In this document: positions 7,355 through 20,340 of the stretch, in pieces
How positions within the stretch are numbered: position 1 is the first letter of the stretch
How the letters are laid out: each line of letters opens with the position of its first letter
NCBI GenBank assembly: GCA_021806925.1
Contig: JAKAPS010000006.1
Location: 1-62,789 of the forward strand
Origin: a bacterium
Lineage (GTDB): Bacteria > Patescibacteriota > Dojkabacteria > JAKAPS01
Reading direction: 5' to 3'
Length of the DNA stretch: 62,789 bases
Notes under the pieces: model-generated
Database searches by the model: none
The model's input: the letters and a program-made list of their open reading frames with translations, nothing else
Told to the model about the DNA's origin: nothing
Program-made: the position numbers and the translations under genes

Positions 7355-8197
7355 ATGGAACACCTGGAAAAAATAAAAGATATATTAATACATATTGCAA
7401 TAGAGGATGGAGAAATAATTGAAGATAGATTTAACAGTAGAGGAACTTTTTTAGATGTTAGAATAAAAGATAACGATATGCACAATATTGTTACTGATGC
7501 AGATGAAAATTCACAGAAATTCCTTATAGAAAATATAACTGAAAAAGTTTTAGGTATAGGAATAAAAAAGGAACAAATAGGATTTATATGTGAAGAAAAT
7601 GGTGTATCAAATATTGGTGAATATACTTTTGTAATTGATCCTATTGATGGAACTACTGCATTCTATGCAGGATTTCCTGCATTTGCAATATCTATAGCCC
7701 TATTTTTAAACAATGAACTTGTACTTGGGTTGATATATAACCCGATGACAAAACAGATGTATTATGCAATCAAAAATAAAGGGGCATATTGCTATACGAA
7801 AAAAGGTGAAAATATAAAGATAAATTCTAAAGATTTGCCTCTTAATAAAATGATCTTTATGGGTAGTTTGAGTAAGGTGTTTAATATAGAGTTAATACAA
7901 ATAGAGATGTATAAAGAGCTACACAAACATTGTTTAGGATTTGCTGGAACCCTTTCATTTGTTGACTCCGTTATAAAGTTACTAGATGATACCAACTTTG
8001 TTGGGATAACAATCCTTGGAGGTGGTATGCTTTGGGACATCTCCGCTTGTGAACTTATTGTTACAGAATTAGGTGGAAGTGTATGTGATTATGAAGGCAA
8101 AAAAAACATATTGGATTTAAAAAACCCAGATAAAAAATACCCTTCAATAGTTTATACAAAAAGCACAATTGATGATATTCTTAACATTATAAAATAG
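7355..8197 (+). CDS. Inositol monophosphatase family protein (SuhB-like)
   Basis: TDADENSQ, ICEE, VIDPIDGT, LWDISA motifs. Confidence 0.92.
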   Translation: MEHLEKIKDILIHIAIEDGEIIEDRFNSRGTFLDVRIKDNDMHNIVTDADENSQKFLIENITEKVLGIGIKKEQIGFICEENGVSNIGEYTFVIDPIDGTTAFYAGFPAFAISIALFLNNELVLGLIYNPMTKQMYYAIKNKGAYCYTKKGENIKINSKDLPLNKMIFMGSLSKVFNIELIQIEMYKELHKHCLGFAGTLSFVDSVIKLLDDTNFVGITILGGGMLWDISACELIVTELGGSVCDYEGKKNILDLKNPDKKYPSIVYTKSTIDDILNIIK

Positions 8198-13656: not shown

Positions 13657-13724
13657 ATAGAGGGATTATTACATATATATACAAATTTGTAAATATGTGG
13701 CTTCAGTTATATATATACGATTTA

Positions 13725-14972
13725 TTATGTTAAAAGATACTTCCAAAGAGGTATAAAATGAATATTATTTCCACCTTCAGTAACATTTTTTTCTATTGAC
13801 TCTGTAACAACTATTGCTTCATGTGATTGAAAAGATTCTAGTACATTAAATAAATGAGTTGTATTAAAATCATCAATATTATCTATATATTTTGATTCTA
13901 TTAACTGAATTTCATTATTTTGTTTTATCAGAAAATCAATCTCTCTACCTTTGTTATAGAAAAAGTATAAAGAATCCTTATATTTTCTTTGAAGAAAATC
14001 AAAAAGCGTCCTTTCAGCTGCCTGCCCCCTATTCAATTTTCCGCATAAATTAAATAAAAGCCCATTGTCATTAATATAGTATTTTTTGGGGAAATATATT
14101 CTTTCATTTCGTGAAAAAGCGAATCTTTCTAATTCATACATATTAAATGTTTCTTTTAAGGCAGTGATGTACTCACGTACAGTATCTTTAGAGATACCCA
14201 AAATCTTTCCAAGTTTTATTAGACTTGTATGTGAACCTGATCTATCTGCAATAAGTTTTAATAAATCCCTAACAATATCTAAATTACGTATGTTATAGTA
14301 TTCAACAAAATCCTTATAAACGATACTATCAACTAAGTTTGAAAAATAGTCTGGCTCCTGTAATGATATATATTCTGGATATCCTCCTATTTTTAAATAT
14401 TCATCTAGAATATTTATATATCTATATCCTTCATATAATGGTATATCTATATTTTTAAATTCAAGAAATTCTTTAAAGGTAAGAGGAAACATATACATAT
14501 TTGTATGCCTTCCTGTTAAAAAGGCAGTTTTTACATGAATCTTAAATGAGGCTGAGCCAGTAACTATTATATGAACATTTTTTTCTATATCATATATGTT
14601 CTTTAATTCCTGCTCCCAGTTATCCTTGTACTGAACTTCATCTAAAAAGATATATATTTCTTGATCGATGGAAATATTATGAATTTTTCTGTATTCTTGA
14701 AGAATAGTATGTATAGACATATTATTAAATGCAAATGTATCAAGAAGCACATACAGAATATGTGAAACAGGAATCCCTGAATCAATTAATTTATTTATAT
14801 ACTGATATATTAGTGTAGTTTTCCCAACTCTGCGCCCTCCAAGTAGTAAGCATATATTTGAATATTCTAATTTCTTTGTAAGATCTTCTATGTAGCTCTT
14901 TCTTATAACACCAACATCAAGTTTCTTTTTACTAGTCCACCAAGGATTTTGTAATCTTAAAATTTCTTCCAC
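13725..14972 (-). CDS. AAA_14 + DUF4143 ATP-binding protein
   Basis: GGRRVGKT Walker A, IFLDEVQ Walker B, VTGSAS, GGYPE, PKKYYINDNGL, EIDF C-terminal nuclease-like motif; GTG start. Confidence 0.9.
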   Translation of the reverse strand: MEEILRLQNPWWTSKKKLDVGVIRKSYIEDLTKKLEYSNICLLLGGRRVGKTTLIYQYINKLIDSGIPVSHILYVLLDTFAFNNMSIHTILQEYRKIHNISIDQEIYIFLDEVQYKDNWEQELKNIYDIEKNVHIIVTGSASFKIHVKTAFLTGRHTNMYMFPLTFKEFLEFKNIDIPLYEGYRYINILDEYLKIGGYPEYISLQEPDYFSNLVDSIVYKDFVEYYNIRNLDIVRDLLKLIADRSGSHTSLIKLGKILGISKDTVREYITALKETFNMYELERFAFSRNERIYFPKKYYINDNGLLFNLCGKLNRGQAAERTLFDFLQRKYKDSLYFFYNKGREIDFLIKQNNEIQLIESKYIDNIDDFNTTHLFNVLESFQSHEAIVVTESIEKNVTEGGNNIHFIPLWKYLLT

Positions 14973-15180
14973 GTGGATATTATAGCCGAGTTAGCCGAAT
15001 ACTTCAATACCTAGCTATTACAGGTATAATATGCTTTCTATGCTTATAATTCTTTCAGTCTATACTCTAATTTTTTAGAATTACTTTCTCAAAAACATCT
15101 TTTTTTTTGATTATATTTGATATTAGGCATTATCGGGAAAATAGCAAGAATTTAACACAACGGAATGCAATAAAAATAAT

Positions 15181-15255
15181 TGGATCAGGATGGACTTGAA
15201 CCATCGACCCCCGTCTTATAAGGACGATGCTCTAACCGATCTGAGCTACTGATCC
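15181..15255 (-). tRNA. tRNA-Ile, anticodon UAU (CCA not encoded)
   Basis: Reverse complement folds as a cloverleaf: acceptor GGATCAG/CTGATCC, D-arm GCTC/GAGC, anticodon stem TCGTC/GACGG with loop CT-TAT-AA, T-arm GATGG-TTCAAGT-CCATC, discriminator A. Confidence 0.95.
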
Positions 15256-15367
15256 AACAATTTCGTTAGTAATAAAAAGATCTGCCCACAGTTCAAAAAA
15301 TTACTAGCTAGCTTATTGTAGCATATTTTTCAAAATATTTAAAAGTTAGTTATTTAGAAACCTACTA

Positions 15368-17803
15368 TTAAAAGTTAAAACCATCAAATGGATTCTTCTT
15401 TGTACTTGGTGCTTCCTTACCACCTTCTAAAATTGACTTCCTTCTATCTTCCATTTCCTTCTCAACATCTGCAATACTCCTTCCGTACCTTACACTTGAA
15501 AGCTTCTTTATTGAATCCCCAAGTGATATGTTCGGTTCTGGTATTTTCCATGTTGTATCAAGTGAGAATGCAGGTATTGTTTCCCCTTTAGCTATCATCT
15601 TTACATAACAATTCCTATTTTCTAAATTCAACAAATCCTGTTGTTTAAAGGTAGGAGAAAATTCCTTTTCAAGTATTTCAGCATCAGCTGCACCCACCTT
15701 AAAGCTAACTAATGAACCAACATTACCAAACACTGCCTGCCTAATCTGATCAGTCATTTGTGACATATATTGGTTTGCGACTGTTAGATTTAACCTGTAT
15801 TTTCTTGCCTCAGACATGATTTTCATAAAATCATCAGTTGCAAAGTTCTGGAATTCATCAACATAAAGGTAACAATCTTTTCTTTCTTCAATAGGCAATT
15901 TTGCTCTTGTATATGCAGCACTTAAAATTTTAGGGATTAATATTAACCCGAGGAATTGAGAATCCTGCTCACCTAACTTTCCTTTACTTAAATTCATTAT
16001 TAGAATCTTCCTATTGTTCATAATGTCGGAGAAATTGAAAGCAGATTTACTCTGACCTAATATATTTCTCATTGTTTTGTTTGTTACAAATCTATCAAAC
16101 TTTGATGTGAAGTAACCAAGAGTTTCAGATTTATGATAATCAGAAGTCTTAGCTATCTGTTCCGTCCAATATGATCTAACTACATCATCTTTAAGATACT
16201 TAAGCATTTCGTTCAAATATGCTTGATCCAATAAAATCAACTTGAGGACTTCAATTAATGTACTTCCAGGTCGAGCCATTGCAGTTAAAAGAGCATTTCT
16301 TACAACCCTTTCCAGCTGAGGACCAGTAATACCTGTTTTATTTGGATCAAATAATTTTTCTAGTAACGCATAAAAAGCAGATGCAATCTGGTGTTGCTCT
16401 AATTCAGTTTCATTATCAAGAATGTTAAACCCAATAGGTCTTTCTGTATCTCCAGGATCAAAATATATAACATCTTCGGCTCTCTCAGGAGGTATTCTAT
16501 AAATTATATTTTCAGCACTGTCTCCATGTGGGTCAATAAAAATAACGCCCTCTCCATTAGAAATATCTTGAAGAATCATTTTTTCAAGAAGTGTTGATTT
16601 TCCGACACCTGTTCTTCCAACAATATATACATGCCTTGTTCTATCCTCTTTAAGCAAGGCTACTCTTTTTATTATTCCTCTATACACACCATCTCCAATG
16701 TATAGACCTTCAGTTGCAACACCTTCAGGAACTGGTGCCCTCTTTGAGGATAGCCAGTGAAGATTTGGTACATTAACATTTTTATTCGGTAAATGAAATA
16801 TTGAAGCTAACTCTGAAGTATTTAAGACTGATAAATGAGAATTTGGAAGGAATCTAAACAATGGAAGATGCCTGTGCTTGAAAGCAATTATGAAATCCTG
16901 CTTCTCATACCATCTCAATTTTCTTTTCGTAAATTTATTAGCTCCTGGATCCTCAAATTGCTTAAAACTCTCAACAAGAGATTTTAAAATCTTCTTAGCA
17001 TTATCTGCACTTGGTGATGTAGCAACTAACCTAATACAGAAGTTATATCCAAGTTTTGACATTTTTTTATTTATTGCTTCAACCTGTTTTGTATCAGTCT
17101 GTGGTTTAGGATTCTTTTCATCACCAGTTTTTTGCATATCCTTAACCTTAGCCTTACCTTTCTTGACCCATTTTCCATCTGATGGAGAGATTATAAGTTG
17201 CATTGCTGCACCCTCATGTGGAAGTAATCCACTAAGAGATGTAGTAATTGCACTAATTGTGTCTACCTTCATATCTTCATATTCCCTTATTGGGAGGTAG
17301 TCTTTTTTTGCAAGTTTTAGTTCTGCAAATTCAATATTAGTACTTTCCTCAGAAAATATCTTGTATTCCTGATTCTGTATAAGTATTTCAGCCTCAGGAT
17401 ATGCTGCATTTATTTGTTTATTCACTAAATTAACTAATCCATTTGGCATTGAAACATAAAACCTTATTGTCTCTGGAAGCCCTACAATTTCAAAACTAAT
17501 ATAGTCATACTCACCAAAAAATTTGTTTTTAAAACTATGATTTCCAATACCAGCAAGGTTAGCAAATAACTGTTCAGCTGCTTTTATTTCTATTTCATTG
17601 TCTTTAGGAATACTAACCAATTCAAGAACTCTTTTAGCTCTCTTTTTTCTTCTAGTTGTATCATGAACAAGGTAAACGATGTATATAGACAAAAGAATGG
17701 CAACTACAACAATTGCAATAAATAGGACACCATCTATAGCCACTCCGAGCCAGTTAATTATAGATTGTTGTGGTGCATATGCAACTACTTCAGTTGGAAC
17801 CAT
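15368..17803 (-). CDS. VirD4/TraG-like type IV secretion coupling ATPase (TrwB/DUF87 type)
   Basis: N-terminal TM, GRTGVGKS Walker A, FIDPHGD, LYVDEFQNF Walker B, SEARKYRL, ANQY, VFGNVGSLVSFKVG. Confidence 0.88.
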   Translation of the reverse strand: MVPTEVVAYAPQQSIINWLGVAIDGVLFIAIVVVAILLSIYIVYLVHDTTRRKKRAKRVLELVSIPKDNEIEIKAAEQLFANLAGIGNHSFKNKFFGEYDYISFEIVGLPETIRFYVSMPNGLVNLVNKQINAAYPEAEILIQNQEYKIFSEESTNIEFAELKLAKKDYLPIREYEDMKVDTISAITTSLSGLLPHEGAAMQLIISPSDGKWVKKGKAKVKDMQKTGDEKNPKPQTDTKQVEAINKKMSKLGYNFCIRLVATSPSADNAKKILKSLVESFKQFEDPGANKFTKRKLRWYEKQDFIIAFKHRHLPLFRFLPNSHLSVLNTSELASIFHLPNKNVNVPNLHWLSSKRAPVPEGVATEGLYIGDGVYRGIIKRVALLKEDRTRHVYIVGRTGVGKSTLLEKMILQDISNGEGVIFIDPHGDSAENIIYRIPPERAEDVIYFDPGDTERPIGFNILDNETELEQHQIASAFYALLEKLFDPNKTGITGPQLERVVRNALLTAMARPGSTLIEVLKLILLDQAYLNEMLKYLKDDVVRSYWTEQIAKTSDYHKSETLGYFTSKFDRFVTNKTMRNILGQSKSAFNFSDIMNNRKILIMNLSKGKLGEQDSQFLGLILIPKILSAAYTRAKLPIEERKDCYLYVDEFQNFATDDFMKIMSEARKYRLNLTVANQYMSQMTDQIRQAVFGNVGSLVSFKVGAADAEILEKEFSPTFKQQDLLNLENRNCYVKMIAKGETIPAFSLDTTWKIPEPNISLGDSIKKLSSVRYGRSIADVEKEMEDRRKSILEGGKEAPSTKKNPFDGFNF

Positions 17804-17876
17804 TTCAACAAGACATTATACCCCAAAACAGGAAAACAACCAATGTTTATTAAAAAGAATATATGTTTAATAAAGA

Positions 17877-18311
17877 CTAAAATGGCATTTTACCTACAAA
17901 ATTACGTGCATATTTAATATTCTCTTTGTCTATAATACTCTTATGCTTATCATATTTCTTCTTTCCCCTTCCAGCACCAACCTCAATTTTTATTAAATTA
18001 TGTGACAACAATATACTAAGAGGAATAACAACATTCCCTTTTTGCTTTAAATGATTTGCAATTTCCCTTATTTGAGACTTCTTCAACAACAATTTTATAT
18101 TTCTGCTCTGAGCATTATCAGTTATTGCATTTATTAAATAAACTTCGCCATCTAATACTTTCACATATGAATTCTCTATTTTAACTCTCCCCTCTCTAAA
18201 AGCTTTTACCTCAATTCCTTCAAGAATCAAACCACAAAGATATTCTTTAAATATGAAAAAATTAAAATTAGCATATTTATTTCTCTTTATTAATTTTGCG
18301 TTTTGCTTCAT
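17877..18311 (-). CDS. smpB: SsrA-binding protein
   Basis: NKYA.FNF, GLILEGIEVKAFREG, KLLLKKSQI, GRGKKKYDK. Confidence 0.93.
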   Translation of the reverse strand: MKQNAKLIKRNKYANFNFFIFKEYLCGLILEGIEVKAFREGRVKIENSYVKVLDGEVYLINAITDNAQSRNIKLLLKKSQIREIANHLKQKGNVVIPLSILLSHNLIKIEVGAGRGKKKYDKHKSIIDKENIKYARNFVGKMPF

Positions 18312-18333
18312 TAATTAAACTTATTCTACTCTA

Positions 18334-20340
18334 TTAATTTGCACTTAGAAATGCCAGTGGAGCTTTATATACATTAAGTCCATCAAGAATATATATGTAT
18401 TTCAAAGAATTATCAACATATATGCTTTTTATATTGCTGAATGAATCATTTGTCATATCTGCAACGAAACTAAATTCTCCCTGTGCTACCTTCCTCAAAG
18501 CTATTATTCTGTTGTTTTGTGGATCAAGCAAAAATATATACCCTATACTTTCATTAGTATATATTGCAGTAGTTGAAGTTAAAGGAATATTTATTAGAGA
18601 TATATTATCAATGGTGTAATTTACTTTTTGTGATGCAAAATATTCTGTAAATCCATTTTCAGGAGAAGCAAAATATATATTACCATCAACCGCTGATGAA
18701 TTTACAACACCAATATTAGTCATATAACTTTCTGGAAGTGAAAAACCACCATTTACATAAAATGATCTATATAGAACAGAATCTTGTGCATCTAAAAAAT
18801 ACAAATTTGAATGAAATGTAAAACAGCCGCTAATACTTGGAAGTGAATTACTTCCTGGAATCTGATTAAATTGTCCGTTCTGATAACTTATAGCTCCATA
18901 ATTGGAATCATACAGTATATATGCCTTTAGGCTATTTGAGTAATATATACACGTACTTGAGTTATATTTATTGTTAATAAAAGACATAGATGATAAATCA
19001 AATATTCCCGATGAAGTTGTAACTAGGTTGTTATCAATTGCTGTTGCATTTGAAACACCATAGGAAGATAAATTAGCAACTGTTTGTAAATTCAACACAT
19101 CAATTCTATGATATGCAAAATATTTTTCACTTATAGATGAGTAGGCGTTATATATAACCTTATCAGTTCTGTAGCTATTATACATTTTATATATTTCGGA
19201 ATATGTTGAATCTATATTAGAAATTGTTAGATTAGCGACTAAATTTTTAGCATTCAACTCATTTGAAGATGTTGTAGCAACTTTATGCTCATATACTTTC
19301 ACGCTTGAGAATAGAAAATAGAAAGATAGAAGTATAATTGGTAAGGAAAATAGGATAAATGAGACAATATTTGCCTTTATTTTTTCCTTAATTTCAAATC
19401 TTGAGAAAATATCCTGTAAAACATTTAATAACACTTTGACTTCACTTCTAGCTAAAAAAAAAAGGCGATTGTTTTTAATATTTTTAATCCAGCTAAAACT
19501 ATCTCTTTTAAGACTAGGTAATTTCTTAATTTTTATACTGTCTAATTTAGCCTTATACAACCCCTTAAATGCAAATTCAGATATATGCTTTTTTTTTTCT
19601 CCTAATTTCAAATTAGATATTATACCGGTAATTGCGTTAAGACCATTCGAAAACACTTTATCCTGGCTATATCCATTTTCAGTATTATCTGACATACCAC
19701 TGTTAAAATCAGAACTAAGATTATCTTCAAATGATATTTTTAAAAACGAAATTTTACCATAACTTTCAGGAAACCTCATAAATATCCTGTCTATTTCTTC
19801 ATCATTAAGCATATTCAAGTTCTCTATACTGCTGCTCTCTTCTCTTTGTAATACACTCCATGAATTACCTGTTAAAATCATTAAAGAATCACCTTCAGTT
19901 ACAATACCAGAAGCAACCATTCCAAAAACTTCTGATTCATCAAGTGCTTCTGAAATTATTGATACCTTATTATCTCTTATTAAACAAATTTTCCCATCTC
20001 CAACTTTTACAAAATATATTGCGTTTTTATATATGACAAGACATGTGGTCTCAAAATCTACATCATCAATACTTTCTTTTACTTCAAGGTAACTGTTCAA
20101 AGAAAATAGAGCATCCTTAAACGATTTTTCAATAACATTTATTAATGCACTTTTATTCTTTATACCAGTTAGAAAATTATCAATAAAAATATCAAGTCCA
20201 GATAGAGCATCAACACCCTTTTTAACACGCATATCACAAACGGAGAATATATTTAATTCTTCATCTTTATATTCATATATTTTAGAGACATGAGATAAAC
20301 TACTTATCTCCTCTTGATATGTTTTTACCTTTATATTCAT
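18334..20340 (-). CDS. Single-pass membrane protein: degenerate PP2C-like N-terminus, TM at about aa 325-345, C-terminal beta-propeller
   Basis: VKVGDGKICLIR resembles the PP2C GD motif; NLYFLD / NIYF / YIFLLDPQNNRI / YIYILDG NHL-like blades. Confidence 0.5.
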   Translation of the reverse strand: MNIKVKTYQEEISSLSHVSKIYEYKDEELNIFSVCDMRVKKGVDALSGLDIFIDNFLTGIKNKSALINVIEKSFKDALFSLNSYLEVKESIDDVDFETTCLVIYKNAIYFVKVGDGKICLIRDNKVSIISEALDESEVFGMVASGIVTEGDSLMILTGNSWSVLQREESSSIENLNMLNDEEIDRIFMRFPESYGKISFLKISFEDNLSSDFNSGMSDNTENGYSQDKVFSNGLNAITGIISNLKLGEKKKHISEFAFKGLYKAKLDSIKIKKLPSLKRDSFSWIKNIKNNRLFFLARSEVKVLLNVLQDIFSRFEIKEKIKANIVSFILFSLPIILLSFYFLFSSVKVYEHKVATTSSNELNAKNLVANLTISNIDSTYSEIYKMYNSYRTDKVIYNAYSSISEKYFAYHRIDVLNLQTVANLSSYGVSNATAIDNNLVTTSSGIFDLSSMSFINNKYNSSTCIYYSNSLKAYILYDSNYGAISYQNGQFNQIPGSNSLPSISGCFTFHSNLYFLDAQDSVLYRSFYVNGGFSLPESYMTNIGVVNSSAVDGNIYFASPENGFTEYFASQKVNYTIDNISLINIPLTSTTAIYTNESIGYIFLLDPQNNRIIALRKVAQGEFSFVADMTNDSFSNIKSIYVDNSLKYIYILDGLNVYKAPLAFLSAN

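Follow-up and report, generated by a model that had tools for sequence, protein, structure and literature searches.

Bacteria are commonly described as reading the isoleucine codon AUA with tRNA-Ile2, whose CAU anticodon is converted by TilS into the lysidine-bearing LAU form, a system that lets AUA but not AUG be read as isoleucine. According to papers from 2024-2026, 'almost all bacteria' use lysidine, and UAU anticodons are confined to 'rare cases' (PMC11938285, PMC13752280). A tRNA-Ile gene with a UAU anticodon in the genome of an ultra-small bacterium of the Patescibacteria (CPR) raises the question of how this organism reads AUA as isoleucine and leaves AUG to methionine. The gene lies in the window, that is, the whole stretch of 62,789 nucleotides analysed here, which is one contig (C18) of a 928,548-bp assembly of 23 contigs with 30% G+C; the genome is rated 92.7% complete and 1.1% contaminated, and the public sequencing runs that contain the window sequence are mine-drainage metagenomes. 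With a probability of roughly 0.9, we consider tRNA-Ile(UAU) to be the cell's only AUA reader, an isoleucine acceptor that replaces both tRNA-Ile2(CAU) and TilS.

The tRNA gene and its surroundings

ARAGORN calls a tRNA-Ile(tat) at 15180-15256 on the minus strand, the sole tRNA in the window and, in the whole-genome scan, a single-copy gene. The Rfam model RF00005 is covered in full when read from 15255 to 15181, and its score of 66.5 bits is well above the gathering score, which is 29 (E 2.9e-12). The minus-strand sequence, GGATCAGTAGCTCAGATCGGTTAGAGCATCGTCCTTATAAGACGGGGGTCGATGGTTCAAGTCCATCCTGATCCA, forms an acceptor stem of 7 bp, a D stem GCTC/GAGC, a variable region of 5 nt and the T arm GGTTCAAGTCC; it ends in the discriminator A73, and CCA is not gene-encoded. 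U12-A23, A37, A38 and A73 can all be read from the sequence. The earlier note had described this gene, from the letters alone, as a clean UAU cloverleaf with the loop CUUAUAA and discriminator A; ARAGORN and Rfam agree with that description, and its coordinates are exact, while the strand, on which it was silent, is minus (see the table).

Comparative evidence points to a functional tRNA under purifying selection on its structure. In an alignment of 17 homologs, all 357 stem cells out of 357 (100%) hold standard pairs, and compensatory changes are found in 13 of the 21 stem pairs; 0 of 500 shuffles did as well, and slid registers came nowhere near. Among homologs from over 160 related species, the anticodon loop is invariant. 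It is this combination of an invariant loop, intact pairing and covariation that argues for selection on a working molecule.

Features around the tRNA-Ile(UAU) gene, in coordinates of the window
Feature	Position	Strand	Basis or remark
tRNA-Ile(UAU) gene, 75 nt	15181..15255	(-)	ARAGORN; Rfam RF00005; paired cloverleaf
Anticodon U34-A35-U36 (plus strand = ATA)	15218..15220	(-)	direct sequence reading
Anticodon loop CUUAUAA	15222-15216	(-)	C32 U33 U34 A35 U36 A37 invariant in 17 homologs
Promoter-like site TTTAAA-17-TACAAT with upstream TG, about 60 nt 5' of the tRNA	15315..15343	(-)	consensus scan
VirD4/TraD-like type IV coupling ATPase gene, upstream of and co-oriented with the tRNA	15368..17803	(-)	Pfam DUF87, TrwB_AAD_bind, TraG-D_C; NCBIfam TraD/VirD4-like weak
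AAA_14/DUF4143 ATPase gene, downstream of the tRNA	13725-14972	(-)	domain matches

Genes for type IV coupling ATPases and AAA_14/DUF4143 proteins often travel on mobile elements, and the tRNA gene lies between one of each. It could be imagined that TAT arose as a mistake in sequencing or assembly, or that the gene is a decaying or mobile-element-borne copy. Against this, positions 15100-15340 show zero differences from an independent assembly of the source run, in which the word depth is 41; nothing in the data points to a CAT anticodon, which the earlier note had named as a sign of assembly error. The loop is invariant and the covariation perfect. No duplicated tRNA end or direct repeat was found around the AAA_14/DUF4143 gene of the window. 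The gene is single-copy and keeps its place, with VirD4-like orthologs (48-70% amino acid identity) directly upstream of tRNA-Ile(TAT) in four families (f1, f2, f13 and f6), and this shared order argues that the position behind the VirD4-like gene is conserved and chromosomal. The linkage of the TAT tRNA to the VirD4-like gene appears to be class-specific, and a preprint describes a type IV secretion system as native to this phylum. An error or a stray copy can therefore be given hardly any probability.

The flanks hold some further features. The promoter-like site upstream of the tRNA may possibly be its own promoter; since the scan returned 4 sites where shuffled sequences led us to expect 2.3, it is weak evidence for one. 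Among the contigs of three metatranscriptomes from the same study, none derives from 13700-18400 and nothing comes from this organism. Several relatives carry a gene for a XerD-like recombinase downstream of the tRNA, at the place taken here by the AAA_14/DUF4143 gene, and a gene of the latter kind also flanks the tRNA-fMet/Met locus outside the window (C12:18352-19632, plus strand). An SmpB gene is found in the window at 17877-18311. Elsewhere in the assembly, ARAGORN calls a tmRNA (C19:16584-17007) with an unusually long predicted tag, VKNPFSNFVAGVKLAFANLFAPSMNYAFA, as well as a tRNA-Ser(CGA) of 77 nt (C19:53002-53078), a length that leaves no room for the long variable arm expected in a tRNA-Ser; a normal tRNA-Ser(CGA) of 88 nt is also called, on C10.

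AUA codons and the lysidine system

The demand on this tRNA is considerable. The earlier note had remarked that ATA codons are visibly abundant, and a count over 682 long open reading frames bears this out: ATA accounts for 55.0 per 1000 codons, making it the second most used codon of all and 51.5% of those for isoleucine, and ATG for 17.0 per 1000. The run of codons it gave as an example, at 7370-7390, lies in frame within a 280-aa open reading frame (7355-8197). A single-copy tRNA gene thus serves more than 5% of all codons.

AUA means methionine in many mitochondria, and the same reassignment might be considered here, with the UAU tRNA acting as a methionine acceptor for both AUA and AUG. 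A UAU anticodon can read both codons, and CPR lineages are known for changes to the code (PMC8629427). The meaning of ATA was examined in the VirD4-like orthologs of 14 genomes, which were aligned and the codons of the other genomes tallied for each column. The ratio of ATT plus ATC to ATG is 7.4 in ATA columns, close to the 6.7 and 6.9 of ATT and ATC columns, and 0.1 in ATG columns. That ATA is substituted just as ATT and ATC are, and in the opposite way to ATG, argues that AUA is isoleucine and not methionine in these genes. The tRNA itself fits this meaning: when the anticodon is masked, the TAT tRNAs of the class interleave in a tree with tRNA-Ile(GAU) and stand apart from all CAU tRNAs, even if trees of 75 nt are too noisy to settle where the class TAT tRNAs originated. 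The genome also keeps a separate elongator tRNA-Met(CAU), and at 5.5% of codons a methionine-coding ATA would bring the methionine content to an implausible 7%. Reassignment of AUA is, in our view, exceedingly improbable. As to the ancestry of the tRNA, descent from tRNA-Ile2(CAU) was considered and rejected; BLAST against 40 TilS-bearing genomes returned mixed top matches (Ile-GAT, Lys, Ala and Met) and not Ile2.

The canonical system was sought in the organism's own genome, and neither of its parts was found. Searches with PF01171 and TIGR02432 give nothing above cut-off in this genome and are positive in 14 of 14 control genomes; one weak 'TilS' match (18.6 bits) proved to be MnmA (NCBIfam NF001138, 381 bits), the s2U34 synthase, which is thus present. 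ARAGORN lists tRNA-Ile(GAU) and just two tRNAs with a CAU anticodon, both on C12. The first is the initiator, recognized by its C1xA72 mismatch and 93-94% identical to the initiators of other Patescibacteria. The second is the elongator tRNA-Met, with the anticodon-arm signature GGACUCAUAAGCC and an A31/G39 mismatch; its identity is 76-82% with elongator-type CAU tRNAs of TilS-bearing genomes and 64-68% with the Ile2-type tRNAs of one TilS-bearing family (f43). The same signature marks the elongator in TilS-bearing genomes that have a separate Ile2-type CAU tRNA too. No Ile2-type CAU tRNA was found by ARAGORN in this 92.7%-complete assembly.

Given that the assembly is incomplete, absence from this one genome is a weak argument, and the case for loss rests on synteny and on the pattern across the class. 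In 10 of the 13 loci compared from TilS-bearing Patescibacteria (L067 and L093-L104), the gene immediately upstream of ftsH is tilS, often with three CAU tRNAs beside it. Here, ftsH is found at C12:15932-17857 on the minus strand, with the tRNA-Met 20 nt upstream, then the tRNA-fMet, and no tilS. In family f43, three CAU tRNAs (Ile2-type, initiator and elongator) are found just upstream of the tilS-ftsH loci. Set beside such loci, the region C12:15932-18049, outside the window, looks like a clean 'empty site' in which tRNA-fMet, tRNA-Met and ftsH have been kept, and tilS and the Ile2-type tRNA are gone.

The class-wide pattern is equally one-sided. A pattern built from the D arm, the CTTATAA loop and the T arm matches a TAT tRNA in 163 of 201 class genomes, and a reversed control pattern gives 0 matches in the same search; independently of the pattern, BLAST with the tRNA retrieves homologs with a TAT anticodon from 18 of 40 relatives in 8 families. 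TilS_N rises above cut-off in 1 of the 201 genomes, and that genome is 7% contaminated. About 40 weaker 'TilS' matches in the class (24-41 bits, in open reading frames of about 350 aa) were examined and set aside as MnmA and not divergent TilS. Applied to 301 genomes sampled from the phylum, this search detects TilS in 121, so sequence divergence is not what hides it in the class. The trait is ancestral to the class, vertically inherited and not peculiar to this organism.

Across the sampled phylum, TilS and tRNA-Ile(UAU) exclude each other. Of the 301 genomes, 121 have TilS only, 77 match the TAT pattern only, 103 match neither, and none has both (Fisher p = 2.5e-21). The counts of TAT tRNAs are lower bounds, as patterns built on CTTATAA miss loops with C38 and the strict pattern also misses D-loop variants; a looser pattern is noisy, with control matches in about 45 genomes. 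A second family of tRNA-Ile(UAU) does exist, with the loop CUUAUAC (C38 and not A38) and a different body (L072, L085 and L091, from genomes G354, G291 and G201, respectively). The 'neither' group is thus partly an artefact of detection, as these three genomes do carry a tRNA-Ile(TAT), and the true share of UAU users must be higher than counted. By these patterns, about 80-100 of the 301 genomes show neither TilS nor a TAT tRNA, some of them false negatives; in the class, two genomes that are 99% complete (G014 and G023) are matched by the patterns for neither.

These counts also bear on the possibility that the UAU tRNA is redundant, with tilS and tRNA-Ile2(CAU) hidden in the unassembled 7% or so of the genome. 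The assembly, 92.7% complete, does lack several essential tRNAs (the 41 that are called do not include tRNA-Lys(UUU), Leu(UAA) or Pro(UGG)), and both systems are carried by Lactobacillus plantarum and L. casei among the Firmicutes (PMC3575796). However, the assembly spans the syntenic place for tilS next to ftsH, and the gene is not there; TilS turns up in 1 of 201 class genomes, compared with 121 of 301 across the phylum, and 0 of the 301 phylum genomes have both. Redundancy is therefore very unlikely. The suggestion of the earlier note that this lineage has dropped TilS is supported by the genome itself, by the empty site at ftsH and by the class counts. Its description of UAU anticodons as rare exceptions fails within this phylum, where a UAU tRNA is common (at least 77 of 301 genomes, and 163 of 201 in the class).

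Isoleucyl-tRNA synthetase and the wobble base

If tRNA-Ile(UAU) is the only AUA reader, it must be charged with isoleucine and must discriminate between A and G at the third codon position. A search with PF00133 finds four reading frames of class-I synthetases over cut-off in the genome. A frame of 1044 aa on C5 is the IleRS (TIGR00392, 747 bits), with MupA/MupB as the next-best models; of the four, this frame was the one scanned and confirmed as IleRS. The enzyme is type 2: its C-terminal domain is matched, in part, by DUF5915 (49 bits), and the zinc-binding domain zf-FPG_IleRS gives no match. Compared with solved structures, it scores 556 bits to eukaryotic cytoplasmic IleRS, 531 to bacterial IleRS2, 519 to that of T. 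thermophilus and 269-287 to IleRS1.

It would be tempting to see the type of synthetase as the cause of the switch to UAU. This was rejected, as 291 of the 301 phylum genomes have a type 2 IleRS (DUF5915, PF19302), all TilS-bearing lineages included; being phylum-wide, it is ancestral and provides a permissive background but not an explanation of UAU use. The scores of the C-terminal domain are unevenly spread, nevertheless, and in the 301-genome sample the best 50 DUF5915 scores all come from TilS-bearing genomes, as do 90 of the best 100. The anticodon-binding region at the C-terminus of IleRS2 thus appears to lie further from the family consensus in the lineages without TilS, which could reflect either co-evolution with U34 or plain phylogeny.

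The modification t6A37 is an identity element for IleRS in E. coli. TsaD (338 bits) and Tgt are present in the genome, and the presence of TsaD suggests that t6A37 can probably be made. By analogy with related enzymes, IleRS2 would charge the tRNA by reading U34-A35-U36, aided by t6A37; eukaryotic IleRS and the IleRS of the Bifidobacterium/Neorickettsia type are thought to read UAU likewise. On the ribosome, U34 would pair with the A of AUA, and misreading of AUG would be kept low by the intrinsically weak binding of U34 to G, together with competition from tRNA-Met(CAU). Weak U-G binding in the A site and competition by tRNA-Met have been measured for the unmodified UAU tRNA of Mycoplasma mobile (PMC3575796), and the same two effects for the UAU tRNA of a Bacillus subtilis tilS-deletion suppressor (PMC3919564). 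This lineage would thus have another route to the discrimination of AUA from AUG, as the earlier note had proposed.

Whether U34 carries a modification is less clear-cut, and on balance we lean, by a little, towards an unmodified base. In bacterial tRNAs, a U at position 34 nearly always carries a modification, and the tRNA may be just as described here with the exception that a modified U34, pseudouridine or an undescribed derivative, provides both selectivity for A over G and recognition by IleRS. Such a base would be useful: with AUA at 5.5% of codons and AUG at 1.7%, a small amount of U-G wobble would already carry a cost. The nearest relative of the IleRS is the eukaryotic cytoplasmic enzyme, whose natural minor substrate has Psi34 (PMC3575796), and the lower DUF5915 scores in lineages without TilS (the top 50 of 301 being all TilS-bearing) hint at co-evolution. 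On the other hand, both bacterial UAU tRNAs that have been chemically analysed, those of M. mobile and of the B. subtilis suppressor, are unmodified and still discriminate. No candidate enzyme for the modification of U34 in a UAU anticodon was identified in the genome. Signature motifs of MnmE/MnmG were not found in a six-frame translation, a lead and nothing firmer, and MnmA, although encoded, acts on substrates that carry U35 and not A35. A modified U34 is quite conceivable, at somewhat less than even odds.

Relation to known systems and significance

TilS-independent decoding of AUA by tRNA-Ile(UAU) is already known. Nine species in three clades were reported to have UAU-type tRNAs by Taniguchi et al. 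2013 (PMC3575796), and a database paper of 2014 gives 19 species. Bifidobacterium and Neorickettsia lack TilS and combine a tRNA-Ile(UAU) with an IleRS of eukaryotic type (PMC3575796). The organism described here resembles them in having no tilS, a genomic TAT tRNA-Ile and a type 2 IleRS without the zinc-binding C-terminal domain. It differs from them in that the trait spans an entire class and much of a phylum and not a genus, that AUA is one of the two most used codons, and that the type 2 IleRS is an ancestral trait of the phylum, found in its TilS-bearing members too.

With M. mobile, it shares a reduced, AT-rich genome, the lack of tilS and a UAU tRNA as sole decoder of AUA (PMC3575796), and M. 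mobile probably serves as the model for the avoidance of AUG by an unmodified U34 on the ribosome. The synthetases are different, however: M. mobile has a type 1 IleRS in which Arg865 of the zinc-binding domain (Trp905 in E. coli) confers recognition of UAU, whereas the type 2 enzyme here has no such domain. A defining trait of the M. mobile subtype, an IleRS of type 1 adapted in this way, was looked for and is not what this genome encodes; judged by the type of its predicted IleRS, the system would therefore belong to the Bifidobacterium/Neorickettsia subtype and not to that of M. mobile.

Two further comparisons are instructive. In the B. subtilis tilS-deletion suppressor, a change of G34 to U34 in tRNA-Ile1 replaces the lysidine system with little misreading of AUG (Kohrer et al. 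2014, PMC3919564). The TAT tRNAs of the class likewise resemble tRNA-Ile(GAU) in body sequence; the suppressor, though, is a mutant obtained in the laboratory from a species that has TilS, whereas the present case is natural, ancient and fixed. In eukaryotes, a tRNA-Ile with the anticodon PsiAPsi also reads AUA by means of a wobble base derived from U, and the IleRS found here is nearest to the eukaryotic cytoplasmic enzyme (556 bits). Their formation of Psi34 and Psi36 requires Pus1 and a precursor that contains an intron. Unlike theirs, the gene described here has no intron, and a Psi-forming enzyme was not identified in the genome. The canonical lysidine system, which performs the same task, is used by about 40% of the sampled Patescibacteria, and both of its components are missing from this genome.

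In the openly accessible literature, no paper was found that links lysidine, tilS or the AUA codon with CPR, Patescibacteria or Saccharibacteria, and the scale of the phenomenon goes beyond the literature found. A more far-reaching interpretation, which we consider unlikely, is that the class and no less than a quarter of Patescibacteria, probably more than half, have abandoned lysidine and achieve selectivity for A over G by undescribed means. Such means may be a new modification of U34, a remodelled anticodon-binding domain of IleRS2 or a CPR-specific feature of the decoding site; the weaker DUF5915 scores and the families of loops with A38 or C38 would then be traces of co-evolution, and selectivity in these bacteria may not need to follow the solution of M. 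mobile.

Returning to the favoured reading of tRNA-Ile(UAU) as the sole AUA reader, the gene is one instance of a clade-wide exception to the lysidine/TilS rule of the textbooks. It is relevant to the question of how the genetic code can keep AUA and AUG apart without modification of a cytidine, and also to the use made of tilS, be it as an essential or marker gene taken to be 'universal' or as a target for antibacterials. For genome annotation, it means that isotype callers and estimates of completeness should expect TAT, and not CAT, in these genomes. Cultivated and genetically tractable Patescibacteria exist among the Saccharibacteria (PMC10633639); if these carry the same tRNA, the chemistry of U34, its recognition by IleRS2 and the discrimination between AUA and AUG on the ribosome would be directly testable there.
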